16,145 nt of DNA from Pseudomonadota bacterium (GTDB lineage: Bacteria; Bdellovibrionota; FAC87; UBA2466): NCBI GenBank assembly GCA_043767805.1, contig JAYUGC010000044.1, forward strand, positions 1 through 16,145. Reading direction: 5' to 3'. The first letter of the stretch is position 1; each line of letters begins with the position of its first letter. The notes under the pieces were generated by a model. The model saw only the letters and a program-made list of their open reading frames with translations. It was not told the DNA's origin and made no database searches. Both the position numbers and the translations under genes were made by a program. Shown one piece after another: positions 2 through 16,145 of this stretch.

Positions 2-898
2 CTCACCCCCGAGCAGCAAAGAAAGCTCGAAGGCGATTTCAATGCGGCCATTCAGGCCGCCCAGCAGAATCAGTATGAGAGTGCGGTCGAGTATCTGCGC
101 CGCATCCACTCGGTCTTGCCCTACTATAAGAACTCTCTCGAGCTCCAAGACCAGTACCTGAAGATCGTCAAAGATCGCCAGGTCGTGGACGCGCAAAAGC
201 GCGCGAAAGACGACGAGAAGCAAGACTTGCAGCTCTATCTCGAAGAAGGCTTGGACTACTTGAAGGGTGGCGACTTTGAGCGCGCCGCCGAAGCGTTCAA
301 CTCCGCCATCGTCATCGACCCGGCGAATCCCACAGCCATCCGGGGCCTCAAGGCCGCCGAGTTCAAGGTGAAGAGCCTCGACGAGATCCCGGCTGAGAAA
401 GACGACGAGCAGGAGAAGCGCAAAGTCGTGAGCGAGCTCTTTCAGCGCGCCGTTTCCGCTTTCACCAACAAGAGTTACCAGGAAGCCATCGATACGGCGG
501 AGAAGATCCGTAAAATCGAGCTTCGCGGCGATACCCAGTATCTAAACGAAGCGAAGCAGATCATCGATCGCGCCCGCATGCTCCAAAAAGAAGAGTTCGA
601 GCCTTTCCTCATCCAAGCGAAGGAAAAATACGCCGAAGGGGATTACAACGCGTCTCGCGATCTTTGCGAAGAGATGCTTAAACGCGACGGCTCTTACGAC
701 GAGGCCATCGAGCTACTCACGAAATCGAAGAAACAGCTCTATCGTCTCGCTAAAGAGGCTTACACGTACGGTTACATCCTGGAGAGCATGAACCGTATCG
801 AAGAAGCGAAGCAGTATTGGAACCGGGCGAAGAACTACGTGCGCCCCGGCGATGAGTACTACTCGAAGATTACGAAGAAGCTCGACTCTTACCAGTAA
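2..898 (+). CDS. Tetratricopeptide-repeat (TPR) protein, 5'-truncated by window edge
   Basis: The frame is open from base 2 (LTPEQQRKLEGDFNAAIQAA...) to TAA at 896-898, so the ORF-track start at 116 is internal. Several TPR-like helix pairs are present, e.g. EEGLDYLKGGDFERAAEAFNSAIVIDPAN, AKEKYAEGDYNASRDLCEEML and YGYILESMNRIEEAKQYWNRA. Confidence 0.85.
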   Translation, partial: LTPEQQRKLEGDFNAAIQAAQQNQYESAVEYLRRIHSVLPYYKNSLELQDQYLKIVKDRQVVDAQKRAKDDEKQDLQLYLEEGLDYLKGGDFERAAEAFNSAIVIDPANPTAIRGLKAAEFKVKSLDEIPAEKDDEQEKRKVVSELFQRAVSAFTNKSYQEAIDTAEKIRKIELRGDTQYLNEAKQIIDRARMLQKEEFEPFLIQAKEKYAEGDYNASRDLCEEMLKRDGSYDEAIELLTKSKKQLYRLAKEAYTYGYILESMNRIEEAKQYWNRAKNYVRPGDEYYSKITKKLDSYQ

Positions 899-1973
899 GA
901 CTCAAGGCGCAGAGCCCTGAGCAGCCCGCCAAGAGAAGCCCCATCTCTCCGAGTCCCCAATTCAAAGACAGGAAGGCTCCGTAAGCCAGCGTGCCCGTGA
1001 GGGCCATGAGGCCGTACGCAATGGAGACTGCTCCCGCTCCCGGGAAGGTTTCGCCGAGCCAATCGAGCAGCGAAAGCGCGAGAAACTCGTAGAAGAAAGC
1101 GGCCGCAACGACGAGTAAGAGACCAGCCAGGCGATCTTCCGTGGGAAGAAAGAAGTAACCCATCGCCATGAAGAGTAAGCAAAGCACGACGGCGACGCCG
1201 AAGGGAAGGGCCGCGCCCTTCTTGCTTCTGAGCTCACTCCAAAACAGAGATTTCCCCGCGGTCGCGAGGCCGAAGGCGAGGCTGCCGTAAGCGATGGGCG
1301 CGAGCGTCGTTCCCACGTCGAACGCGGCCAGCGGATCGGCCGTACCCAAGTACTTGGAAAGCATCTGGGTCAAAATCTGCACGCAGAGAGTAAGCCCAAC
1401 GAGACAAAGCGCCGCCCAAGCCGCGCCCCAGCCCAAATGCGATTTTTTCGACGAGTCGGTGCCCCGTTCGGCGGGAGTGAGCTTTCCGGCGGCCACGAGA
1501 TCGAGCGCTCCGGCCACGCCAAAGGCGAGGGCCGCAATGGGTAAGACGGCTTCGAGTCCGACGCTACCGAGGCGTTGAGCGCCGAGAAGCCCCAAGGTGT
1601 AACCCAACGAGTGCGCGAGCTCTACCCAGGGAAGACGGCCTTCCCGCCCGGCCGCGAGGTCGCTTCGAAAGGCGCGAGACACGAAGCTACAGCTGAACTG
1701 CAGGCAAAGCAGAGCGAAGGCGATTCTCTTATCCCCTCGAAGCGCCCAGGTAAGCGAGAGGGTGAACGCCGCTGAGGCGAGCGTCAGGAAGCCACCTACT
1801 CTCGCGATGCGCTTTCTGAAATTCAAGATGAGGCCGAGAGAAAGGGTCGAGCCGACCAGAAAGGCGAGGATGGAGTCACTGCCGGGACCGAAGGCGAACA
1901 TGCCTTTCGTGAGTAGGGCACTCGAGGCCAACGCGCCCAAAAAGTTCGCCGCGACTAGGAGTTTGAGCAACAC
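870..1973 (-). CDS. Polytopic membrane protein, divergent MFS-like transporter (candidate exporter for the mcc-like locus)
   Basis: 367 aa and very hydrophobic, with about 11-12 TM-like segments split into two halves by a polar loop (KLTPAERGTDSSKKSH). The GTG start lies 9 nt after the upstream gene's stop, suggesting co-transcription. The 3' end overlaps the convergent TPR gene by 29 bp. Confidence 0.65.
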   Translation of the reverse strand: MLLKLLVAANFLGALASSALLTKGMFAFGPGSDSILAFLVGSTLSLGLILNFRKRIARVGGFLTLASAAFTLSLTWALRGDKRIAFALLCLQFSCSFVSRAFRSDLAAGREGRLPWVELAHSLGYTLGLLGAQRLGSVGLEAVLPIAALAFGVAGALDLVAAGKLTPAERGTDSSKKSHLGWGAAWAALCLVGLTLCVQILTQMLSKYLGTADPLAAFDVGTTLAPIAYGSLAFGLATAGKSLFWSELRSKKGAALPFGVAVVLCLLFMAMGYFFLPTEDRLAGLLLVVAAAFFYEFLALSLLDWLGETFPGAGAVSIAYGLMALTGTLAYGAFLSLNWGLGEMGLLLAGCSGLCALSLTGKSRASS

Positions 1974-1982
1974 GGCTAAACC

Positions 1983-3512
1983 TTACTCCGGGAGGCAGGC
2001 GGAAAGCACCGCATACTTGAACGCCTCCTCACCTTCCACGATCACCTGATAGGGGTAATCCGTGGGCGGGCTCTTAACCTCAAAGCCCCGCGCGGAAAGA
2101 AAGCGGGCCAGGGACTCCAGCTCGAACTTGATGATGGAATAGAGCAGGATGCGCTCGCCTTTCGGAATCACCTGCTTGCCGTCCCAGGTGGTGAGCCGGT
2201 GTTTCAGCGTGTAATAGAAGCGGTACACCTGGCCGCGGATGCCTTGGGGGCTCGAGTAATCTTGCGCCGGGATGATGCTCTTGAACTCTTCGGCTTCGGC
2301 GTCGTAGAGAAACTCGCGATTCTTCTCGAGCGGAATGGGATTACCTTCGTCGTCCGTGGAAATGAGAAGCTCCAAGTCGTGCAAAAGATGCCGGGGAGTT
2401 TCCAGCGTGAACGGATCGAGCGTGTACTTTTCTTCGATGGGCGCGCCGTCTTCCTTGGGGCCTTTTCTCCGAAGTACCGAAGCGCCTACCAGGAAAGCGA
2501 GCGGTCTCGCGGTGCTGAAAGCTTCCTTCACGGAAACGAAGAAATCCCATTCGTGGTTCTCGTAATTGCCGATGCAATTGCCGAGAAACGTACAGACGGT
2601 GGGCGCGGGCTTGAAGAAGCCTTCTCCCATTTTCATTCTCGCCTGAGGCAGAATGGATTTCAGACGATAGAGATCGCCAATCACGGGGCAATACTTGAGA
2701 CGTCCCGTGCGCAGATCATCGGGAAAGCGTTCCTGAATGAGCTTCGAGTGGCTCATGAGGAGAATGTCGCTCGAATCGATGGCGAGGTACTCGATCTGCA
2801 AATTGCCTTTGCGCTTGAGTAAGCGTCTCAGAATTTCCGATTCGCCGAGACCTTCGCCGGGGGCGAGGGAAACGAGACAGATGCGGCCTTCGGTGGCGGC
2901 TTCGAAAAGCGTTTCCGGAATGCCATACGCGTCCATGGCTTCCGCTTCATAAATCTTTTTGTCGGCAGCGGTCTTGGTGGAAAAGCTGAGCCACCAGGCG
3001 GCCGCACGGTAGGTGCTATAGAGGCAAGCGAAGGGAAGGCCGCCGCCATCACGGACCAATTCGCGGGCAATGGCGCGCGGATCTTGAAGTCCCGCGCTTT
3101 CTTCGGCCACTCCCACGAGTCTTCCACCGACACTTGCTAACGGCTCGGCGGAGCCATCCGTATCCACTAATTCCATCTTCGACTCGCGGCCGACTTTGAG
3201 CGTCTTCAGCCGGAAGCGGACTTCGCTGCGGGGCAGCGTTTTGGAGAGCTCAGAGAGCGCTACCCGGAGCGTCGGAACCGGTAGAATGCCTCCGCCTTTG
3301 GTGGCTTTCTGAGGGGAGCGCACGGCTTTGCGCTTACGGATGATCTCGTTTATATCCCCATAACTAGCTGGATTTCCTCTTAAATCGAGGAGGGCTAGAA
3401 AGACCACTGAGCGGACCGTGGCGTTGTCGAGTTTCAGGGTATCGCGGAAGTCGAGAGCGCGGTCGCCCAGCCACTTCTGATATGCCGCCCCATCTATGGA
3501 CCACGTTTCCAA
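1983..3512 (-). CDS. Putative N-terminal winged-helix DNA-binding domain fused to an EgtD/EasF-like (Methyltransf_33) SAM-dependent methyltransferase domain
   Basis: C-terminal motifs are collinear with the EgtD family: LPFACLY (cf. LPPKYFY), LVSLAPGEG (cf. LIELGSG), YLAIDSS (cf. YVPIDIS), VIGDL, FLGNCIGNY (cf. FLGSTIGNF), FLVG. The N-terminal ~120 aa has a wHTH-like pattern (VFLALLDLRGNPASYGDINEII...TLRVALSELSKTL followed by a beta wing). TTG start preceded by an AAGGAAGG SD. Confidence 0.7.
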   Translation of the reverse strand: METWSIDGAAYQKWLGDRALDFRDTLKLDNATVRSVVFLALLDLRGNPASYGDINEIIRKRKAVRSPQKATKGGGILPVPTLRVALSELSKTLPRSEVRFRLKTLKVGRESKMELVDTDGSAEPLASVGGRLVGVAEESAGLQDPRAIARELVRDGGGLPFACLYSTYRAAAWWLSFSTKTAADKKIYEAEAMDAYGIPETLFEAATEGRICLVSLAPGEGLGESEILRRLLKRKGNLQIEYLAIDSSDILLMSHSKLIQERFPDDLRTGRLKYCPVIGDLYRLKSILPQARMKMGEGFFKPAPTVCTFLGNCIGNYENHEWDFFVSVKEAFSTARPLAFLVGASVLRRKGPKEDGAPIEEKYTLDPFTLETPRHLLHDLELLISTDDEGNPIPLEKNREFLYDAEAEEFKSIIPAQDYSSPQGIRGQVYRFYYTLKHRLTTWDGKQVIPKGERILLYSIIKFELESLARFLSARGFEVKSPPTDYPYQVIVEGEEAFKYAVLSACLPE

Positions 3513-3621
3513 AGTCTCTAGCCTTCCTTAAAACCACGCCGCCGCGGGCGCGTCTTCTTTATACCTGGCTTTGCCCGGGGTTACCAGGCACGAGGATACA
3601 TATATTCCGTATTTATTCATA

Positions 3622-3637
3622 TTGCATATGTATGCAA
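3622..3637. promoter_or_regulatory. Palindromic operator candidate TTGCATA-TG-TATGCAA in the divergent promoter region
   Basis: Perfect 7-bp inverted repeat with a 2-nt spacer inside an AT-rich island between the divergent genes. GCATATGT is present at 3624-3631 and again at 3682-3689. Confidence 0.55.
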
Positions 3638-3734
3638 CGTTTGTTATCTCTAAAGCAACTGATATGAAAGTCGGGCCGAGAGCATATGTCGGTTTTGGAA
3701 TTCTTCAACGGGACGAAACGCAAGGGGACGCAAC

Positions 3735-3758
3735 ATGAACGATCAGAGCTGGAACTAG
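3735..3758 (+). CDS. mccA: Microcin C-like precursor heptapeptide MNDQSWN
   Basis: ATG AAC GAT CAG AGC TGG AAC TAG with SD AAGGGGA at 3722-3728. It is 7 aa with a C-terminal Asn, like E. coli MccA (MRTGNAN), and lies 23 nt upstream of the mccB-like start. Confidence 0.88.
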   Translation: MNDQSWN

Positions 3759-3781
3759 AGAACGCCCAGTCCGGAGAGAGT

Positions 3782-4852
3782 GTGACGCCGTCCCCACGCA
3801 CGGGGCAATGGATCCTTTCTCCCTATGTCCGAGCCGGCCTGGATGGCGGCATCCTTTTCCTCGGGTTCGGCTCCCTGCAAAAGCAGGTGACCGATAGGCG
3901 GCGCCAGGAGCTGCTCCTCTCCACCTCGCACTTCTGGATGATTCCCTCGACCGTGAATGAGGCGCATGACTATCTCGTGAAACGTGCCGGCGCTTCCGAA
4001 GCTGAGGCCAAAGAGACCATCGATTTTCTTTTGCTGAACCGTTACCTCATTCGGCCCGACGCTTTTAAGTCGACCGATCGGTATGGGCGGCATGCTTTGT
4101 TCTACGCGCTTGCCGGTGCGGATCCTCAAATCGTTCAGGGAAAACTCGCGGCGAGCCACGTGGTCGTTCTTGGATGCGGCGGCATAGGCAATCAGATCGC
4201 CTGTGCCCTTGCCGCGGCGGGCGTGGGTAAGCTCACTCTCATCGATGAGGAGCCAGTCGAGATTTCTACGCTTACCCGACAGTTCGTTTTCGCGGAGAGC
4301 GATCTGGGACAGCCGCGCACGGAAACTTTGCGCCGTGAGCTCTCGCGCAGGGCTTCACAGACGGTGGTCGACATCGTGGACACACCGCTTCGAAAAGACG
4401 AGGACTTCGCGAGTATCCCCGACTGCGATTTGATTGTGGTCTCGGCGGATTCGGGTGGGCTCATGCCGCGTTTGAACGCGCACGCCGTCCGCCGCAAGAT
4501 TGCGTACGTGGATGTGGGCTTCGTGCAGGATGTGGCGGTGTGGGGACCGTTTGTGATTCCCGGCCGTACGGGCTGTCACGCTTGTCATTCGCTCGTTGCG
4601 ACGGAGCCCAAGCCCGGTGATTTGGCGTGGAGCCTCATCCGAGAGATCAACGGCCGCTACCAAGCGCCCGCGTTCGGCGCGGTGAACATGGCGTCCGCCT
4701 CTCATGCTTCGCTTGATTGTCTTCGTTACTTGGGAGGCTTCGGCCAAATCCAATCGCTCAACCAGCGCGTCGGCATCTGGACCCACGACCTGCACATCGA
4801 AACCCAGCCATGTCCCCGCAACCCAGCCTGCTCCGTCTGCTCGTTATCTTAA
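3782..4852 (+). CDS. mccB: MccB-like ThiF/E1-family peptide nucleotidyltransferase (microcin C synthetase homolog)
   Basis: Collinear with E. coli MccB along its whole length: WILSPYVR (cf. YILGRYVK), RYGRHALFY..GADPQIVQGKL, VVVLGCGGIGN, LTRQ, VVSAD, GFVQDVAVWGPFVIPGRTGCHAC, PAFGAVN, SLNQRVGIW, RNPACSVC. Both Zn-binding CxxC motifs are kept. The GTG at 3782 with GGAG SD (3773-3776) gives 356 aa, close to MccB size; the ORF-track start at 3686 would overlap mccA. Confidence 0.9.
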   Translation: MTPSPRTGQWILSPYVRAGLDGGILFLGFGSLQKQVTDRRRQELLLSTSHFWMIPSTVNEAHDYLVKRAGASEAEAKETIDFLLLNRYLIRPDAFKSTDRYGRHALFYALAGADPQIVQGKLAASHVVVLGCGGIGNQIACALAAAGVGKLTLIDEEPVEISTLTRQFVFAESDLGQPRTETLRRELSRRASQTVVDIVDTPLRKDEDFASIPDCDLIVVSADSGGLMPRLNAHAVRRKIAYVDVGFVQDVAVWGPFVIPGRTGCHACHSLVATEPKPGDLAWSLIREINGRYQAPAFGAVNMASASHASLDCLRYLGGFGQIQSLNQRVGIWTHDLHIETQPCPRNPACSVCSLS

Positions 4853-4876
4853 AAGTACTAACTATCTTTTAAGAGA

Positions 4877-6325
4877 CTAGTCGAGGGAGATCCAGACCGA
4901 CTTTACTTGCGTGTAGAGCTCGATCGCGTACTTGCCGAGCTCGCGGCCAAAGCCGCTTTGCTTGAAGCCGCCGAAGGGCGAGGCCGCATCGAAGCAGTTA
5001 AAGCAGTTCACCCAAACGGTGCCGGCTTTGACTTGCTTCGCGAGACGGTGCGCTTTGCCGATGTCGCGCGTCCAGATGCCGGCCGAGAGACCGAACATCG
5101 TGTCGTTGGCCTGACGGACGAGATCTTCGTGGCTCTTGAACGAAATCGCAGACACCACGGGTCCGAAAATTTCTTCGCGGGCAATCGTCATGTCGTTGGT
5201 GACGCCTTCGAACACCGTGGGTTTCAAGAAGTAACCCTTCTCACGAGCCTTCATGCCGCCAGTGACGACTTTCGCGCCTTCCGCTTTGCCTTTTTCGATG
5301 TACCCCAAGATCTTATGGAACTGCTCGGAGGACACCTGCGCGCCCATGCGCGTCTTCGGGTCCATCGGATCGCCGACGACGATCTTTTCCGCGTTGGTTT
5401 TCAGTTTCGCGAGGAACTCGTCGTGCGCGCTTTCTTCGATGAAGAGACGCGAGCCGGCGCAGCAAACTTCGCCTTGGTTGAAGAAGATACCTCGCATGGC
5501 GCCCTGTACGGCCGCATCGAGATCGGCATCGGCGAATACGATGTTCGGGGCTTTACCGCCAAGTTCCAAAGACACACGTTTGAGAGAGAGAGACGCGAGA
5601 CGCATCACTTCTTTGCCGACTTCGGTCGAGCCGGTGAAGGCGACCTTGTCGACTTCGGGATGAGTCGCGAGCGCGGCGCCCGCCGTGGGACCAAAACCGG
5701 GAACGACGTTCAGCACCCCGGGAGGAAGGCCGGCTTCCTGAAAGAGCTCAGCCAGGCGCAAAGCAGAGAGAGGCGTTTGTTCAGCCGGCTTCAAGACGAC
5801 CGTGCAACCGGTCGCAATCGCAGGTCCTAGCTTCCACGCCGCCATGAGGAGCGGGAAGTTCCAGGGAATGATTTGGCCGACCACGCCCGCGGGTTCCCGC
5901 AACGTGTAGTTAAAAAAGTTTCCGTTCACGGGGATGGTGTCGCCGTGAATCTTGTCGGCAAGGCCCGCGTAGTACTCGAAGGTCTCGATGGCGAGCGGGA
6001 GATCCGCGTTCATCGTCTCGTAGATGGGCTTACCGTTATTTAAGGTCTCGAGCTCGGCAAACTCCGTTTTGTGTTTTTCGAGAAGAGCGGCAACGCGGTT
6101 CAGGATGCGGCCGCGCTCGCGGGCAGACATTTTCGGCCAGGCGCCCGACTCGAAAGCGCGGCGGGCGGAGCGGGCGGCGAGGTCGATATCGGCTTTGTCG
6201 CCTTCGGCGCACGTGGCCAGGACGGTTTCCGTCGCGGGGTTGAAAACCTCGAAGGTTTTGCCGCTGCGCGCGTCGCACCATTCGCCATTGATGAAAAGCT
6301 TACCATTCTTAACTTCCTGCGCCAT
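4877..6325 (-). CDS. NAD(P)-dependent aldehyde dehydrogenase
   Basis: Motifs [32 protein letters not shown], catalytic Cys in [19 protein letters not shown] and [13 protein letters not shown]. Confidence 0.97.
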
Positions 6326-9085: not shown

Positions 9086-9577
9086 ATGAGCCGCTATTTT
9101 TTGCTTTTTTTCCTTTCGTTTCCAGCCTTCGGGGCGGACGTCTCCACGTTAAAAACCAACGGTGATTTGGACGCCGCCGTGAAATATTGCGTTAAGAATT
9201 TTCCCAAGGGAGCGACTTCCTCGCAGGAGGGTTTCGAGGAGTGCGTTCGCTCGGCACTGGCGACGTATTTCAATGCCGTGGTGAAGCTCACCTGGGCGAC
9301 TGATCCTAAGACGCCGCTCGTAGCGGCGGCCGCCGCGCCCACCAATACGCCGGTGCCCACGCCCGCGATCGATCGCGCGAAGGAAGAAGCGCGCGCCAAG
9401 GAACAATTTAAGATCCTCGTGAAGTCGGTCACGTGTCAGCGTTGTCACGTCGGTCTAAATGCCTCGCAGTATACGCTCTCGCAAATGCACGCGGTGCTGA
9501 CTACGCCGTCGCATCAGGAACATTTGGGCCCCAAGGATCAAGAGCTCATTAGAAAGCTTGGGACGATGGTCCAGTGA
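9086..9577 (+). CDS. Secreted protein with a single heme c-binding motif (putative c-type cytochrome)
   Basis: Signal peptide ending PAFG-A, CQRCH motif, downstream Met/His candidate ligands, and a Pro/Ala-rich linker. Confidence 0.6.
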   Translation: MSRYFLLFFLSFPAFGADVSTLKTNGDLDAAVKYCVKNFPKGATSSQEGFEECVRSALATYFNAVVKLTWATDPKTPLVAAAAAPTNTPVPTPAIDRAKEEARAKEQFKILVKSVTCQRCHVGLNASQYTLSQMHAVLTTPSHQEHLGPKDQELIRKLGTMVQ

Positions 9578-10026
9578 TGATGACTTATTCCGTTCGGCGG
9601 GCGACTCGGGACGACAAGGAGGCGTGGGTCGGTTTGCGCTCGTGCCTTTGGCCGGACGCTCCTGCCGCCGATCACGCGGCGGATGGAGAGACGATTTGGG
9701 AAAAGTATCTTGAAGCGGCGGTCTTTCTCGCGCTCGACCAGACCGGAAAAGCGGTGGGTTTCGCGGAAGTGTTTTTGCGCGGCTTTGCGAGCGGCTGCGA
9801 CACGAGTCCGGTCGTGTTTTTAGAGGGCATCTGGGTGAACCCCGTCGCGCGCGGAAAAGGCGCCGGCCGAAAGCTCGTCGAAGCGTGCGCGGGGTGGGGG
9901 CGCGAAGTCGGCTGCAAAGAGCTCGGCTCCGGCGCGCTCCTCGACAACAAAGCGAGCCACGTCGCTCACAAAGCCTGGGGCTTTGAGGAGACCGAGCGAG
10001 TGATCTACTACCGAATGAAGCTTTAG
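9574..10026 (+). CDS. GNAT acetyltransferase, AAC(6')-Ic/Iy-like family
   Basis: Motifs WVGLRSCLWP, GFAEV.LR...GCDTSPVVFLEGIWV.P.ARGKG.GRKL, GCKELGS.ALLDN.ASH..HKAWGFEETERVIYY. Translationally coupled to the upstream gene (GTGA overlap). Confidence 0.88.
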   Translation: MMMTYSVRRATRDDKEAWVGLRSCLWPDAPAADHAADGETIWEKYLEAAVFLALDQTGKAVGFAEVFLRGFASGCDTSPVVFLEGIWVNPVARGKGAGRKLVEACAGWGREVGCKELGSGALLDNKASHVAHKAWGFEETERVIYYRMKL

Positions 10027-11079
10027 TTACTTCAGCGACTGATTGAACTTCTTCAGGAAGTCCGGACCCGGATCGAGATCTTTCTCCATCAGCGCGTAGA
10101 GCGCCTCGTCCGGCATCTGTCCGATGTCGGAAAGGGTCGGCTGGTCCGCCTTGTAATAGAGCAGACCAGTGAGAAGCTCTTTCGTTTTCTTGCACTCGTC
10201 GAGAGCCTTGAACGCCGACATCTTGCTAGTCGGGTCATAATCCTTCGTGAGCGGCTTGATCGTGAGGGTCGAGCCGTCATGGAGCGTGATGCTCTGGGAC
10301 TCGCCTTCTTTCGTCTCGATCGCGATTTCGTTGAAGAAGGGAACGAAGCCGAGCTCTTGCATCGGGGTTTCATGCTCTTTCACGAAGTCGTAGCTCTTCG
10401 TCGATCCTTCGTGGTTGTTGAAGGTGACGCAGGGGCTGATGATGTCCAGGACCGCGATGCCTTTGTGGGCATGGGCGGCTTTGAGAAGCGCGACGAGTTG
10501 TTTGCGATCGCCCGAGAAGGAGCGGGCCACGAAGGTGGCGCCCAATTCAATCGCGACGGCGGCGCAATCCATGACCGGGTACGGGTTCGGCGCGCCTTTT
10601 TTGGCGAGCGAGCCCTGATCCGCAGTGGCCGAGAACTGACCCTTGGTCAAACCGTAGGTGCCGTTGTTCTCGATGATGTAGACCATGTCGACGTTACGGC
10701 GCACGACGTGGCAGAACTGGCCCATGCCGATGCTCGCCGTATCGCCGTCACCGCTGATGCCGATGGCCGAAAGCGTGATGTTGGCGAGCTTCGCGCCTTG
10801 CGCGACCGACGGCATGCGGCCGTGGACGCTGTTGAATCCGTGCGACCGATCCAGGAAGTAGGTCGGGGTCTTCGAGCTACAGCCGATGCCGGAGAACTTC
10901 ATCACTTCGTACGGCTGAACTCCCAGCTCGTAGTACGCCTGGATGATGGCGTTGGTGATGGAGTCATGTCCGCACCCCTTACAAAGGGTCGAGGGCTTAC
11001 CCGTGTAATCCGTACGGGGGAGGCCCAGGCGGTTGCAATTTGCGGCCGGTGCTGCGGGTGTCGTCGTTGGGGTAGACAT
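10027..11079 (-). CDS. korB: 2-oxoacid:ferredoxin oxidoreductase beta subunit
   Basis: LCKGCGH, SGIGCSSK, HGR, TPP-binding GDGD...NN motif, YGLTKGQFS and SPCVTFN. Confidence 0.93.
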   Translation of the reverse strand: MSTPTTTPAAPAANCNRLGLPRTDYTGKPSTLCKGCGHDSITNAIIQAYYELGVQPYEVMKFSGIGCSSKTPTYFLDRSHGFNSVHGRMPSVAQGAKLANITLSAIGISGDGDTASIGMGQFCHVVRRNVDMVYIIENNGTYGLTKGQFSATADQGSLAKKGAPNPYPVMDCAAVAIELGATFVARSFSGDRKQLVALLKAAHAHKGIAVLDIISPCVTFNNHEGSTKSYDFVKEHETPMQELGFVPFFNEIAIETKEGESQSITLHDGSTLTIKPLTKDYDPTSKMSAFKALDECKKTKELLTGLLYYKADQPTLSDIGQMPDEALYALMEKDLDPGPDFLKKFNQSLK

Positions 11080-11081
11080 GA

Positions 11082-12863
11082 TTAAGCTCCCAATTCTTTC
11101 TTAAGTTCCCGTTCCACAAGATCCGAGGACAGGGGGAATCCGCCGTAGTAAGTGAGCGAGCGCATCTTGGAGTTGTAGCCGGGAAGGTCCCACTCGAGCA
11201 GGGCGCGCATCTGTTTGTCGCGGTTTTGTTCGACCACGATAACTTTATCACAGCCCTTGATGAACTCTTCGACTTCGGACGAGAACGGATAAGCGCGCAG
11301 GCGCATGTACTTCACGTTCTTGTTCTGGATGCGATCCATGGCCTCGATGACCGCGGAGTCCGACGTGCCGTAGGCGATGATGCCGATCTTGGCGCCGGGA
11401 CTGCCGTGCATGACGGGCTTCGGAACGTGCTTCTTCGCCGTGTGCCACTTGCGGAGCAAGCGGTCGACGTTACGGGTGTACGCTTCCGGGCGCTCGGTGT
11501 AGCGCGCGAACTCATCGTGACCCGAGCCGCGAGTGAAGTAGCCGGCGCGGATGTCCGGGTTGCCGGGAAGGGTGCGGTACGGGATGCCGTCGCCGTCGAC
11601 GTCATTGTATCGTCCCCAGCCGTTCAACTTGTCGTCTTTGGCTTGGAGGACTTTACCGCGGTCGTATTGCGGCTTTTTGTACTCGAAATCGTCGTCAATC
11701 CAGTTGTTCATGCCGAGATCGAGATCGCTCATCACGAAGACGGGCGTCTGGAAGCGCTCGGACAGGTTGAAGGCATCGTTGGCCATCTCGAAGCACTCTT
11801 TGGGAGTGGAGGGGATGACGAGAATGTGTTTCGTGTCGCCATGGCCCGAGCCCGCGCACATGCGATAGTCGCCTTGTTGGGTGCGCGTGGGGAGACCCGT
11901 CGAGGGGCCGACGCGCTGGATGTTCCAGATGACGGCCGGCACTTCGGCGTAATAAGCGAGGCTCAAGAACTCCTGCATGAGCGAGATTCCGGGGCCGGAG
12001 GTGGAGGTCATCGCCCGGGCTCCCGCCCAGCCGGCGCCGATCACCATGCCGATGGCCGCGAGCTCGTCTTCCGCCTGAACGATGGCGTAGTTGAGCTTTC
12101 CGTCTTTACGGACGCGCGTTTTCTTGAGGTAGCCTTCCATCGATTCCGCGAGAGAGCTCGACGGAGTGATGGGGTACCAGGCGACGACCGTGCAACCGGC
12201 GTAAACGGAGCCGAGCGCGCCGGCGGCATTGCCTTCGATGAAAATTTTATTGTCGTTGAGGTCGGCTTTCGCGAACGTGAAACGATCCTTCTTTTCGAAG
12301 TTCGCTTTCGCGTAGTCGATTCCGATTTGGAGCGCTTCCATGTTGGCGTCGATGGCGGACTGCTTCGACTTGAACATGTCGCGGATGACGCCTTTGAGAA
12401 CTTCTTCGTCCAGGTCGTAGAGGTGCTTCATCACTCCGACGTAGAAGAGATTCTTAAGTAGTGTTCGGAGCTTGGCGTTGGTAATTTTCTTCGACAGTTC
12501 CTCTACGGGAAGCGCGTACATGATCATGCCAGGCTTGATCTGCTCCGGCGTGAACTTGATGATGTCCGAGTTGTAGAGAATCGTGGAGCCGGCGCGCATT
12601 TCGCCGATGTCCTGGGCTCCGGTGTCCTTGTTCATGAGAACGGCGATGTCGTCGTGCTCGCGCAAGTTTTGGTATCCCTTCGGGCTTACCCGAATTTGGA
12701 ACCAGGTCGGAAGGCCCTGGATATTCGACGGAAACATGTTCTTGCCGCAGACGCCGACGCCCATCCGGAACAGTGTTTTGTAGAGGATGTTGTTGGAAGA
12801 TTGGCTGCCGGTACCGTTGACGGTGGCAACGCGGAAACTGAAATCGTTAATTAGTTTGTCCAT
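11082..12863 (-). CDS. korA: 2-oxoacid:ferredoxin oxidoreductase alpha subunit (fused gamma domain)
   Basis: NGTGSQS, YPITPSS, QAEDELAAIG, TSGPGISLM and QRVGPSTGLPTRTQQGD motifs. Confidence 0.93.
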   Translation of the reverse strand: MDKLINDFSFRVATVNGTGSQSSNNILYKTLFRMGVGVCGKNMFPSNIQGLPTWFQIRVSPKGYQNLREHDDIAVLMNKDTGAQDIGEMRAGSTILYNSDIIKFTPEQIKPGMIMYALPVEELSKKITNAKLRTLLKNLFYVGVMKHLYDLDEEVLKGVIRDMFKSKQSAIDANMEALQIGIDYAKANFEKKDRFTFAKADLNDNKIFIEGNAAGALGSVYAGCTVVAWYPITPSSSLAESMEGYLKKTRVRKDGKLNYAIVQAEDELAAIGMVIGAGWAGARAMTSTSGPGISLMQEFLSLAYYAEVPAVIWNIQRVGPSTGLPTRTQQGDYRMCAGSGHGDTKHILVIPSTPKECFEMANDAFNLSERFQTPVFVMSDLDLGMNNWIDDDFEYKKPQYDRGKVLQAKDDKLNGWGRYNDVDGDGIPYRTLPGNPDIRAGYFTRGSGHDEFARYTERPEAYTRNVDRLLRKWHTAKKHVPKPVMHGSPGAKIGIIAYGTSDSAVIEAMDRIQNKNVKYMRLRAYPFSSEVEEFIKGCDKVIVVEQNRDKQMRALLEWDLPGYNSKMRSLTYYGGFPLSSDLVERELKKELGA

Positions 12864-13840: not shown

Positions 13841-13917
13841 GGGGTGGTAGTTCAGTTGGTTAGAACGCCTGCCTGTCACGTAGGAGGTCGCGGGTTCGAG
13901 TCCCGTCCGCCCCGCCA
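13841..13917 (+). tRNA. tRNA-Asp (GTC)
   Basis: 77-nt cloverleaf: acceptor stem GGGGTGG/CCGCCCC, D arm AGTTCAGTTGGTTAGAAC, anticodon arm CCTGC-CTGTCAC-GTAGG, T arm GCGGGTTCGAGTCCCGT, discriminator G and encoded CCA. Confidence 0.98.
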
Positions 13918-13925
13918 TTTACTTT

Positions 13926-15248
13926 CTAAGATCGCGTTTTCACTAATCTTAAAAAATTTGGATCAGAGCTTGGGGGACATTGGGGGACAGGCGCACTGCG
14001 TTCCTGTCCAAAATTCCCCGCAACGCTGTCCCCCGGGGGGACAGCATCCAACGCATTTTTCGTGAGCACCCCATTGAGGGCGTCCGCGATTTTGTGCTTC
14101 GATGCGTTTGTCTGAGTGACGTATCTCAGCGTTACATTCGGTGAAGAATGATCGAGGTGTTTCGAGACTGCGTAAAAATCGCCCGTCGCCTCGTTGGCCA
14201 GAGTTGCCGAGGTTTTCCTCAGCATATGGGTTCCACGAACATTCTTGATGCCCAATCTCTCCAGCGCCCGGTTGTAGGCTTTCGCCACCGTTTGCCGATT
14301 CATGGGCTTTCCGTTGTTGTGGAAAACAAAGGGCACATTGGGGTTTCGGATCTTTTCGAGTCTCTTCAACTCCTCTACCAAGAGTTGCGGCATCACTAGC
14401 ACCCGAACTTTCCCATTCTTTGGTCTCTCCTTCACCCGGGGTTCCCAGGTGATTTGATCCCAATCAATGGTGCGTTCGATACGAATGATCCGATTCTTCA
14501 GATCCAGAGCCTCCCAGGTCATCCCCGCCAATTCTCCAATTCTTAACCCCAAACAAAACTGTGCTAGGGCCATCGAAGAGAAGATCGGGCTTTTTGACTT
14601 CTTGAGATCCTGCAAGAACAGCGACAACTCTTCTTGGCTCAAGCTCTGAACGGGAGCTTGTGCCTTTTTAGCGATGTCCGCTGCCCTATAGTGTTCATCA
14701 AGAATCGGGATGAGGTAACTTGGGTCGATCCGCTTCCGGTAGAAATTGAGGATCACTTTGAGAAGGTTCAGTTCCTTTTCAAAGGTGTGCCTCGGTCCCC
14801 CTTTCGGGTAACTCTTCACCCAAAACGAGATCAACGCATCAATGAGTGAAGTGTCGATCTCCTCAACTTTAGTACGCGTCAAGAAATCCAGATTTGGAAG
14901 TCGCTTTTCGTATGTCTGTTGAGTGCTTCGTTCGAGTTGCAGAAAGTGGAATGGTTTCCACCGTTCGACAAGCTCTCCGAAAGTTAGCCGTCCATCACTG
15001 CGATGGATCATGTTCCGGGGAGCGTTGTTACCTATTGGGGCCTTTTCAATTTCACCTTGGCGAAATCGAAGCGCATCTTCGAGACTATCGAAAACGGCTT
15101 GCTCCTTTCGGGAGATTCCGTTTTCGACAATTCGCCTCATGGCTCTGTACTTACCCGTTTCTCTCCATTTTTTTGTTTGGCCATCAAACTCCAGTCTTTT
15201 GGAAATTCCTGGATAGTTTCTGACCGGCTGTTCTTTACGTGTGATCAT
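13926..15248 (-). CDS. int: Tyrosine recombinase / phage-type integrase
   Basis: Complete catalytic set: GLRIGE (R), PKNG (K), HMLRK (HxxR), HLDHSS (H), TLRY (Y). N-terminal arm-binding-like and core-binding regions are present. Confidence 0.95.
   Translation of the reverse strand: MITRKEQPVRNYPGISKRLEFDGQTKKWRETGKYRAMRRIVENGISRKEQAVFDSLEDALRFRQGEIEKAPIGNNAPRNMIHRSDGRLTFGELVERWKPFHFLQLERSTQQTYEKRLPNLDFLTRTKVEEIDTSLIDALISFWVKSYPKGGPRHTFEKELNLLKVILNFYRKRIDPSYLIPILDEHYRAADIAKKAQAPVQSLSQEELSLFLQDLKKSKSPIFSSMALAQFCLGLRIGELAGMTWEALDLKNRIIRIERTIDWDQITWEPRVKERPKNGKVRVLVMPQLLVEELKRLEKIRNPNVPFVFHNNGKPMNRQTVAKAYNRALERLGIKNVRGTHMLRKTSATLANEATGDFYAVSKHLDHSSPNVTLRYVTQTNASKHKIADALNGVLTKNALDAVPPGDSVAGNFGQERSAPVPQCPPSSDPNFLRLVKTRS
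13970..14045. repeat. Four GGGGGACA boxes (candidate integrase arm-type sites)
   Basis: Tandem TTGGGGGACA at 13970-13979 and 13980-13989, plus the inverted pair GCTGTCCCCC-G-GGGGGACAGC at 14025-14045. Confidence 0.65.
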
Positions 15249-15496
15249 CTAGTGCCTCCTTTTTGGAGCCACTCAGCGATCTTCACTGGTGAGAAACGAA
15301 CCGATCGCCCTACTTTGGAGTAGGGGATCTTGTTGCCCGACATTAGCTTGTAGACGTGGCGAACGGAGACGGAAAGTTCCCGCGCCACATCGTCCACCGA
15401 CCATACCAACTTTTCAAAGACCGGAGCCCGAGGATTCAAGGGCTTATCGATAGAAGAGATACTACATATAGGGATGACATTTGGCAATTTATTCAT
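15245..15496 (-). CDS. xis: Excisionase-family helix-turn-helix protein
   Basis: WSVDDVARELSVSVRHVYKLMSGNKIPYSKVGRSVRFSPVKIAEWL fits the HTH_17/MerR-like Xis pattern. It overlaps the int start by 4 nt. Confidence 0.88.
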   Translation of the reverse strand: MNKLPNVIPICSISSIDKPLNPRAPVFEKLVWSVDDVARELSVSVRHVYKLMSGNKIPYSKVGRSVRFSPVKIAEWLQKGGTR

Positions 15497-15570
15497 GGCG
15501 TTAATCCGGCGGTAAGTGTTTGATTTCAGGCGGGAAATTTCCGAAGAAAAACTTAATAAATTCTGCTATT

Positions 15571-15590
15571 ATAGTATCATCTGATACTAT
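15571..15590. promoter_or_regulatory. 20-bp palindrome ATAGTATCA-TC-TGATACTAT (operator candidate)
   Basis: Perfect 9-bp arms in the AT-rich xis/fic divergent spacer, 6 nt before the fic ATG, overlapping -10-like TATTAT/TATAGT hexamers. Confidence 0.65.
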
Positions 15591-15596
15591 CAATTT

Positions 15597-16145
15597 ATGT
15601 CGAATAAACCGATCTTCTCGATAACGTCCAACATGCTCCTTCGGTGCACCGAGATCACCCAATTGCTAGGTCGTTACGAAGGGCTGATGAGTCCCCGCCC
15701 CCAGCCTTTGCTGCGTCGGCAAAATCGAATCCGCACCATCCGGGACAGTCTGGCGATTGAGGGAAACCGGCTTACGCTCGACCAAGTGAGCGCCATTTTC
15801 GATGGAAAAAAAGTCTTAGGCCCGTTGAGAGAGATCCTGGAAGTCACGAACGCGATCAAAGTCTACGAGAAAGCTCCCTTCTTTGATCCTTCGTCGTCCA
15901 AGGCCCTGCGAAAGGCGCACGGGATTTTGATGAAGGGGCTCGTCGAAGACGCAGGGCAATGGCGGGCAACCGATGTCGGAATTTTGAAGGGCTCGAAAGT
16001 GTCCCACCTTGCTCCCCCCGCAAGACTCGTGGCGGGACTCATGGAAGATCTTTTTCTGTATCTGAAGAACGAGAAGGCTATTCACGCGCTCATCAAGTCC
16101 AGCATCTTTCACTACGAGCTTGAGTTCATCCATCCGTTTTCGGAC
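15597..16145 (+). CDS. Fic-family protein (AMPylase), 3'-truncated by window edge; absent from the ORF track
   Basis: Manual translation is open for 183 codons: MSNKPIFSITSNMLLRCTEITQLLGRYEG...RIRTIRDSLAIEGNRLTLDQV...AGQWR...HYELEFIHPFSD. It ends at the start of the Fic motif HPFxDGNGR and includes the inhibitory motif SLAIEGN. Confidence 0.93.
   Translation, partial: MSNKPIFSITSNMLLRCTEITQLLGRYEGLMSPRPQPLLRRQNRIRTIRDSLAIEGNRLTLDQVSAIFDGKKVLGPLREILEVTNAIKVYEKAPFFDPSSSKALRKAHGILMKGLVEDAGQWRATDVGILKGSKVSHLAPPARLVAGLMEDLFLYLKNEKAIHALIKSSIFHYELEFIHPFSD

Follow-up and report, generated by a model that had tools for sequence, protein, structure and literature searches.

The stretch of DNA considered here (16,145 nucleotides, positions 1 to 16,145 of contig JAYUGC010000044.1, assembly GCA_043767805.1; hereafter the window) comes from a Pseudobdellovibrionaceae-like genome and carries what is, judged by its sequence, a genuine but atypical microcin C-type mccA-mccB locus. 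Two overlapping open reading frames (ORFs) make up this locus: mccB, of 388 codons plus a stop codon, the predicted product of which (P0001) resembles the microcin C7 synthetase MccB of Escherichia coli, and a seven-codon candidate for the precursor gene mccA, which lies out of frame inside the 5' end of mccB (Table 1). The atypical trait that is at the centre of this report is the adenylation site of P0001, where several residues that are nearly invariant in the rest of the family are replaced by their closest chemical equivalents; its only three close relatives (P0003, P0004 and P0005) display other combinations of such replacements at the same kind of site, while all four sequences keep the residues of the fold, of adenosine binding and of the zinc site.

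The assignment of the long ORF to MccB draws on several comparisons. Its product belongs to the ThiF family (Pfam ThiF, 3.7e-34), and its closest solved structures are chains of E. coli MccB (3h5a/3h5n; HMMER E=1.7e-63 over query residues 42-386, 34% identity), with MoeB scoring far more weakly in the same PDB comparison (2.4e-16). An AlphaFold2 (AF2) model computed with 55 homologs has a mean predicted local distance difference test score (pLDDT) of 88.2, and the top Foldseek matches of this model are all E. coli MccB (6om4_B: template modelling score, TM, of 0.93, target-normalised, with a root-mean-square deviation of about 2.2 Å over 347 columns). By sequence and by modelled structure P0001 is therefore a MccB homolog, as the initial annotation had proposed. 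HMMER, Pfam and AF2/Foldseek agree on the fusion of a peptide-clamp (RRE) domain with a ThiF/E1-type adenylation domain, which is the two-domain arrangement of E. coli MccB (microcin C7 synthetase; 3H5A, 3H5N, 6OM4); both proteins also have the Cys4 zinc site (C297, C300, C382 and C385, present in 4/4 of the related sequences), the Gly-rich loop (here G163, G165, G166 and G168), the ribose-binding Asp (D187) and the RQ motif, and the Arg finger (R135) is retained as well. The canonical phosphate, Mg2+ and catalytic set, by contrast, is incomplete: R198 and D255 are in place, but D189E, N195T, K211R and Y279F are altered, such that D148, N154, K170 and Y239 of the E. coli enzyme read E, T, R and F in P0001. 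In the HMMER alignment, E. coli numbering equals query numbering minus 41 across the motif stretch, and the corresponding pairs are E189=D148, T195=N154, R198=R157, R211=K170, A223=N182, D255=D214 and, further along, F279=Y239.

As in E. coli, where a seven-residue precursor ending in Asn is encoded just upstream of mccB, a short Asn-ending ORF, typically of seven codons, is to be expected next to a gene of this type, and the candidate mccA supplies one. It encodes MNDQSWN, in agreement with the rule, given in two surveys (PMC6495379, PMC4010828), that heptapeptide precursors have an N-terminal Met and a C-terminal Asn. This ORF is the sole Asn-ending ORF of 5-70 codons on either strand of 3400-3950 and, throughout the window, the sole seven-codon ORF with an ATG start and a terminal Asn codon; it is likewise the only one of the latter kind in the 13,033 bases of locus L001, which encodes P0004. 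Between the two genomes, 21/21 of its coding bases are identical and the stop codon differs (TAG here, TAA in L001), a difference that is non-synonymous in the mccB frame. It occupies positions -74 to -51 nt from the codon of residue 42, an offset equal to that of the ORFs of two relatives, and a seven-codon M-x5-N ORF is found 50-160 nt before that codon in 20 of the 46 relatives' loci used for the count (64 were fetched; partial matches and the L001 duplicate were left out). It is by its sequence and position that 3735-3758 is proposed as the candidate for the missing mccA. In these respects the locus resembles the minimal mccABC heptapeptide clusters of diverse bacteria (PMC4010828, PMC6495379), in which an M-x5-N heptapeptide and a strong ribosome-binding site precede the MccB domain by 50-160 nt, and the second residue in the fetched heptapeptide loci is often N or D (MNTISKN, MNFIVRN, MDHIFCN), as in MNDQSWN. 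The minimal clusters, however, have a major facilitator superfamily (MFS) exporter gene after mccB and canonical catalytic residues, and here there is neither. The 26 loci lacking a heptapeptide ORF belong mostly to Nocardiopsis and its allies; in this group, loci L009-L038 encode MccB-like proteins of 45-48% identity that have canonical catalytic residues, with no seven-codon Asn-ending ORF upstream and no MccC-like gene within 3 kb, and the precursor of these enzymes is probably another, longer one.

The nested position of mccA goes with an N-terminal extension of 41 codons, which is confined to P0001 and its close relatives; other homologs begin 2-12 residues before residue 42, and E. coli mccB has no such extension with an out-of-frame mccA in it. 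Where, then, does translation of mccB begin? An alternative start, GTG 3782, is preceded by GGAGAGAG at 3773-3780. From the mccA stop to the start of the RRE domain, L001 has no in-frame ATG, GTG or TTG, and the corresponding stretch of the P0003 protein contains no M, V or L, so that the upstream ATG seems, from these sequences, to be the start in those two. When the window is compared with L001, the proportion of synonymous differences (pS) in codons 1-24 is 0.18 versus 0.63 gene-wide, which argues for an overlapping constraint, and the ratio of non-synonymous (pN) to synonymous differences of about 0.86 in codons 25-41 suggests that this portion is unconstrained. In the AF2 model, pLDDT is <50 for residues 1-5 and 8-30. 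The first eight codons of the long frame (MSVLEFFN, 3686-3709) are identical in L001 at 24/24 bases despite synonymous saturation elsewhere, and P0003 shares these residues. A fold of the leader RNA drawn from the two sequences pairs 3657-3664 with 3687-3694, a helix that would occlude ATG 3686, although judging it would take more than two sequences. In a scan of 3400-5000, no terminator was called in the interval from mccA to the RRE domain. No publication joining microcin C, mccB and Bdellovibrio was found, and the available portions of the mcc surveys PMC6495379 and PMC4010828 do not contain the wording 'overlap', which is a thin basis for calling the nested layout unpublished.

Table 1. 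Features of the mccA-mccB locus (positions in the window; residues numbered in the 388-residue product)
Feature	Position	Strand	Basis or remark
mccB long ORF	3686..4852	+	Pfam, PDB, AF2, Foldseek, ratio of non-synonymous to synonymous substitution rates (dN/dS)
41-codon N-terminal extension, mccA inside in +1 frame	3686..3808	+	Homolog starts, pLDDT, pS
Shine-Dalgarno-like AAGGGGA, 7 nt upstream of mccA ATG	3721..3727	+	Read from sequence; L001 has AAAGGGGA there
mccA candidate, 7 codons (MNDQSWN) + TAG, C-terminal Asn	3735..3758	+	ORF scans, L001 identity, position
Peptide-clamp (RRE) domain, residues 42-130	3809..4075	+	Aligns to E. coli MccB 3-91; pLDDT 93-97
ThiF/E1-like adenylation domain, residues 131-388, Cys4 zinc site	4076..4849	+	Pfam, HMMER, alignment columns, Foldseek
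Motif segment with E189 (4250-4252), T195 (4268-4270), R211 (4316-4318)	4241..4360	+	Translation, family alignment
D255 (= E. coli Asp214, Mg2+ ligand)	4448..4450	+	Kept here; shifted SAD->SDS in P0003, P0004
D276-V-G-F279	4511..4522	+	F279 in place of catalytic Tyr239; D276 found in all four related sequences
Palindrome TTGCATA-TG-TATGCAA	3622..3637	.	Conserved AT-rich divergent promoter region; 2 changes in L001

The replaced residues cluster in a motif segment whose translation, IDEEPVEISTLTRQFVFAESDLGQPRTETLRRELSRRASQ, corresponds to residues 186-225, and the motif text that the initial annotation had quoted from it and from E. coli MccB proved exact. How unusual these residues are can be read from a family alignment of 200 members, composed of 55 proteins that a word-indexed search gave and the 150 best cluster representatives of an exhaustive search, with overlaps removed. 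Position 189 is D in 190 of 194 members and E solely in P0001 and P0005; position 195 is N in 189/195, with T solely in P0001; position 211 is K in 196/199, with R again solely in P0001 and P0005; and position 279, the equivalent of Tyr239, is Y in 188 of 193 and F in P0001. The joint occurrence of D>E, N>T, K>R and N>A, on which the initial annotation had built its case, thus stands for the first three, which are rare; the fourth is present but unremarkable, since position 223 has A in 11 of 196 members already (N in 149) and the change therefore carries no weight, and F279 had been overlooked. The annotation was right that GxGGxG (163-168), R198-Q199, S253-A254-D255, both Cys pairs (297/300 and 382/385) and the reading frame are intact. 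Beside the site lie four further novelties common to P0001 and its close relatives, N276D, P257G, Q170 and C173; at position 276, where N is usual, D occurs across this whole group and in 1/189 members outside it.

Few residues of the E1/ThiF superfamily, whose members range from MoeB to the ubiquitin E1s, are as constant as the Asn, Lys, Asp and Tyr affected here. The Asn (N154, here T195) is one that we take, from E1 structures, to be a phosphate contact. For MccB itself, a review assigns Tyr239 and the Mg2+ ligand Asp214 a critical part in both of the successive adenylations, which are diminished when either is mutated (PMC12596934), and the equivalents of the Lys, Arg and Asp in ThiF, MoeB and Tcd proteins serve in beta-phosphate and charge stabilisation, in binding of the phosphates and in Mg2+ coordination, respectively (PMC13139853, PMC12355090). 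Could the E/T/R set, then, adapt the site to CTP, GTP, a deoxynucleoside triphosphate or another phosphoryl donor? Nucleotide choice does vary within this family, the MccB enzymes of Bacillus amyloliquefaciens and Yersinia pseudotuberculosis preferring CTP (PMC12596934), just as the initial annotation had stated when it proposed altered nucleotide specificity, and the site is clearly unlike that of the rest of the family. Such an adaptation nonetheless appears quite improbable. The changed residues are phosphate and Mg2+ contacts in ThiF/MoeB-type enzymes and not base contacts (PMC12596934, PMC13139853), the Gly-rich loop and ribose-binding D187 are invariant among the four related sequences, and a new specificity predicts one common new state, which these four do not have (see below). 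Moreover, the CTP users differ in that a methyltransferase-like domain is fused to their C-terminus and their precursors are long (19 and 42 amino acids; PMC12596934), and the six ThiF-methyltransferase fusions examined in the family, which share this architecture and form a separate branch of the tree, have the canonical D, N, R, K and D, although their own specificity is not known.

Of close relatives the searched databases contained three only, the next ones being <=49% identical: P0003 (75% identical to P0001, on a 1.2-kb Logan contig), P0004 (73%, from a Pseudobdellovibrionaceae metagenome-assembled genome (MAG), locus L001) and P0005 (81%, truncated at its N-terminus), identities within the group of four being 73-87%. 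In a quick maximum-likelihood tree the four-member clade is monophyletic (Shimodaira-Hasegawa-like approximate likelihood ratio test, SH-aLRT, 100), with the topology ((P0001,P0005),(P0003,P0004)) at SH-aLRT 94 and 98, and its stem, at 0.57, is not long relative to the median tip of 0.73. Among 27 near-invariant columns, each >=93% conserved outside the clade, the clade is unchanged in 20, including the Gly loop, D187, R135, E192, Q199, S253, the GP motif and the four Cys, and varies in seven (189, 195, 196, 198, 211, 255 and 279, equivalent to D148, N154, L155, R157, K170, D214 and Y239 of E. coli MccB), all of which are catalytic. P0001 carries D189E, N195T, K211R and Y279F; P0005 carries D189E, L196F, R198K and K211R; P0003 combines N195S with a shift of SAD to SDS; and P0004 has these two together with Y279F. 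At least nine independent replacements are needed on the tree, none of them on the clade stem, with N195 and Y279 each changed twice, and every one of them is conservative, bringing in the nearest chemical equivalent (E, T/S, F, K, R, an Asp moved by one residue, and F). The combinations differ, and no catalytic change is common to all four members, which speaks against the 'coordinated' shift to a single new state that had been supposed at the outset, whereas the accompanying view that this is not random decay is upheld by changes that are both too concentrated (7/27 columns) and too conservative. Since deviations at this kind of site occur in 4/4 members and selection on the gene is purifying (see below), the substitutions are, as far as these sequences tell, a property of the clade and not strain drift. 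The comparison with close homologs that had been suggested as a check gives a mixed picture in one respect, namely that each homolog is non-canonical somewhere but is canonical at some of the positions at which P0001 deviates.

The same 27 columns provide several controls. Clade members show 2-4 deviations each, while 117 of the 178 family members with enough coverage show none and 39 show one. In 232 non-clade pairs of 65-90% identity, 192 differ at no column and 40 at one; within the clade, the five cross pairs differ at 4-7 columns and the closest pair at one. When each group in turn is left out of the column definition, the clade varies in 7/27 columns and four other groups of similar depth in 0/27, 2/25, 0/27 and 0/27. 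Only three family representatives (P0119, P0116 and P0156), with 6-11 radical changes, for instance D>A/T, N>F/D and K>S, look truly degenerate; they resemble, by sequence, true pseudo-enzymes or enzymes of new function.

Is P0001 itself a pseudo-enzyme that keeps the fold, the dimer and the peptide clamp and binds MccA, and possibly a nucleotide, without adenylating the peptide, as a peptide-binding or regulatory scaffold? In each clade member two or more residues are gone that the rest of the family almost always retains, one or both of the Y239/D214 equivalents, critical for the adenylations (PMC12596934), are altered in 3/4 members, no exporter or immunity gene adjoins mccB, and inactive E1-like partners do exist, such as yeast Tcd1, an E1/ThiF-fold subunit in which phosphate-binding residues are likewise replaced (PMC13139853). 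The resemblance to Tcd1 ends there, as its Arg->Thr loss is radical and it works with an active paralog (PMC13139853). In P0001 and its relatives all of the replacements, at least nine, are conservative, in contrast to the radical ones of P0119, P0116 and P0156, and R135, E192, Q199 and S253 are kept; a second MccB-like gene that might act as the active partner is absent from the genome, where there is only one other ThiF-family match, on another contig. Radical ligand loss beside an active paralog, the hallmark of a pseudo-enzyme of this kind, is thus not what is found. The C-terminal Asn and the seven-residue length of MccA, which are relevant only to the chemistry, are strictly kept too. 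A non-catalytic scaffold is accordingly rather unlikely.

The dN/dS ratio, another check that had been proposed, was computed against L001 and is 0.16 for mccB, with a saturated dS of about 1.4 (1.37); the neighbouring genes give 0.10 and 0.16 and the aldehyde dehydrogenase gene 0.09. On this sequence comparison mccB is under purifying selection. Within the protein, residues 184-226, which are its most conserved part in the rest of the family, reach a pN of 0.35, and the remainder of the ThiF domain 0.16 (Fisher p=3e-5). Taken together, these values suggest that the gene is maintained, with its catalytic segment evolving faster than the scaffold. The GC content around mccAB (0.57-0.59) is the same as that of the flanks and gives no compositional sign of recent transfer. 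One might still see in the locus an orphan in early decay following the loss of mccC, with the catalytic changes as its first damage, a view to which the missing exporter, the raised pN in the motif segment and the restriction of the locus to one genus (2 out of 38 genomes from the order) lend some colour. Decay would, however, hardly leave the reading frames intact in 4/4 sequences, dN/dS no worse than that of the neighbours, mccA identical between genomes whose synonymous sites are saturated, and changes that spare every structural column, with no radical one among them, and it is therefore very unlikely.

The second peculiarity of the locus is the lack of a transport gene. In 13 of 14 relatives' heptapeptide loci examined, the ORF directly after mccB is MFS_1, and 18 of 20 such loci have a MccC-like gene no farther than 3 kb away, one of the two exceptions being cut by a contig end (the MccC profile was built from 13 proteins of these same loci). 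Neither the window nor L001 has a MccC-like ORF within 3 kb of mccB, and elsewhere in both genomes the profile gave just weak partial MFS matches, of 42 bits at best; the cluster, then, holds no MFS-type MccC or similar transporter, and compared with the E. coli system it has no adjoining mccC, D, E or F. What follows mccB here, after 24 nt, is a convergent aldehyde dehydrogenase gene; in L001 two extra ORFs (313 and 192 amino acids, 9160-10687, reverse strand, no Pfam match) that are absent from the window lie between the two. On the other side, the divergent neighbour P0071 (509 amino acids) joins an N-terminal domain to an EgtD-like S-adenosylmethionine-dependent methyltransferase fold, and P0072 (367 amino acids, 1.7 kb away) is an MFS-like membrane protein (Atlas score 0.97, a lead only). 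The idea that these act in the mcc cluster, P0071 as a MccD-like tailoring enzyme and P0072 as the exporter, was rejected: the two form a separate conserved module (870-3512, reverse strand), with a P0072-like gene directly downstream in 15 of 19 other P0071 loci and a MccB gene beside P0071 in none of the 19, and among the other fetched MccB loci only L001 had P0071/P0072 within 4 kb of the MccB gene. The module (loci L072-L090) occurs in MAGs of Bdellovibrionota, Legionellaceae, Coxiellaceae and Acidobacteriota.

These neighbours bear on a further possibility, in which the chemistry is truncated such that the enzyme performs the first adenylation only and releases a peptide with a C-terminal succinimide or isoAsn in place of a peptide-nucleotide. 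Mutation of Tyr239 or Asp214 diminishes the successive adenylations (PMC12596934), and 3/4 clade members have F279 or the shifted Asp; yet P0005 has both the Tyr and the SAD motif and is changed elsewhere, no tailoring enzyme is linked to the locus, the methyltransferase-like neighbour being part of the unrelated two-gene module, and the proposal is pure inference. We regard it as highly improbable.

What, then, does the clade enzyme do? By homology, the N-terminal peptide-clamp domain of MccB would bind the heptapeptide MNDQSWN, the C-terminal Asn of which would be activated with ATP in the ThiF-type site and would pass through a succinimide intermediate to a peptidyl-nucleotide phosphoramidate. 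In the four-member clade the constraint on the triphosphate, Mg2+ and catalytic residues has been loosened but not lost: there are at least nine conservative swaps, the fold, adenosine and zinc residues are fixed, and selection is purifying; loss of the exporter, we infer, may have favoured or permitted this attenuation of the active site. On balance it is probable, from the sequences, that the mccB product is a selected, re-tuned and most likely slower adenylyltransferase, one that still binds a ribonucleotide and is probably turning over. A broader alternative, which we consider unlikely, is that the clade MccB, a lineage in relatives of predatory bacteria, has changed its role: it would either make a different product (a succinimide-ended peptide or a conjugate with another donor) or make a slow-release aspartyl-adenylate mimic that acts in the producer, or is delivered into prey, and is not a secreted microcin. 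A changed role of this sort would go with the rebuilt phosphate/Mg2+ centre, including D276, together with the nested out-of-frame mccA and the lack of an exporter.

Several points weigh against a slowed but working adenylyltransferase, or at least against parts of that proposal. Its slowness is drawn from the usual effects of K>R, D>E, N>T and Y>F at phosphate sites, and N276D, P257G, Q170 and C173 beside the site could compensate fully. The exact contacts ascribed to residues 189 and 195 come from homology. The sample of the clade is four sequences, two of them from short Logan contigs and one of them (P0005) N-truncated; the control pairs and groups are few, mostly Nocardiopsis, and were themselves used in defining the columns, so that they are not independent; and dN/dS comes from a single pair with saturated dS, because clade DNA was at hand for two members. 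As regards transport, the link between exporter loss and the altered site is a single lineage (n=1), and P0072 or an MFS protein encoded elsewhere in the genome might export the product.

What is the significance of a catalytically working but re-tuned enzyme of this kind? The clade amounts to a natural experiment, in which near-equivalent swaps of residues that are constant across E1/ThiF proteins have been made repeatedly under selection, and it shows which parts of the adenylation site are tunable; for enzymologists, and for engineers of MccB as a C-terminal ligation tool, its members are ready-made variants. A precursor placed inside the frame of its own synthetase, with no exporter, further raises the question of what a peptide-nucleotide serves in such an organism. 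Should the enzyme prove fully active with ATP, the finding would shrink to a curiosity of sequence tolerance. The interest for students of peptides that the ribosome makes and that are modified after translation (RiPPs) and of E1 enzymes is moderate, and would be greater if the chemistry or the biology differs.

As to the occurrence of the clade, a metagenome scan for further clade DNA yielded just a 67-residue C-terminal fragment of 60% identity. Four DNA runs, all of one sediment-metagenome study, contain the locus, with no RNA run listed, and the contigs of two sequencing runs showed no variants, their pieces being identical. Upstream of mccB, the perfect palindrome in the divergent promoter region may, by its sequence, be an operator; no consensus sigma-70 promoter was called in 3400-5000. 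Farther downstream, a GNAT protein gene (9574-10026, forward strand, ~4.7 kb from mccB) scores 135.3 bits against the NCBIfam group E of aminoglycoside 6'-N-acetyltransferases, the cut-off of which is 140, and no link of this gene to microcin immunity was shown. It is followed by two genes for subunits of a 2-oxoacid:ferredoxin oxidoreductase (10027-12863, reverse strand; Pfam POR_N/POR and TPP_enzyme_C), which belong to ordinary metabolism. At the end of the window, a tRNA-Asp gene (13841-13917) adjoins genes for a tyrosine integrase (13926-15248, reverse strand) and a HTH_17 excisionase-like protein (15245-15496, reverse strand) and a Fic-domain gene that begins at 15597; GC content falls to 0.49-0.50 across 13841-16145, and this segment is probably an integrated element at tRNA-Asp.

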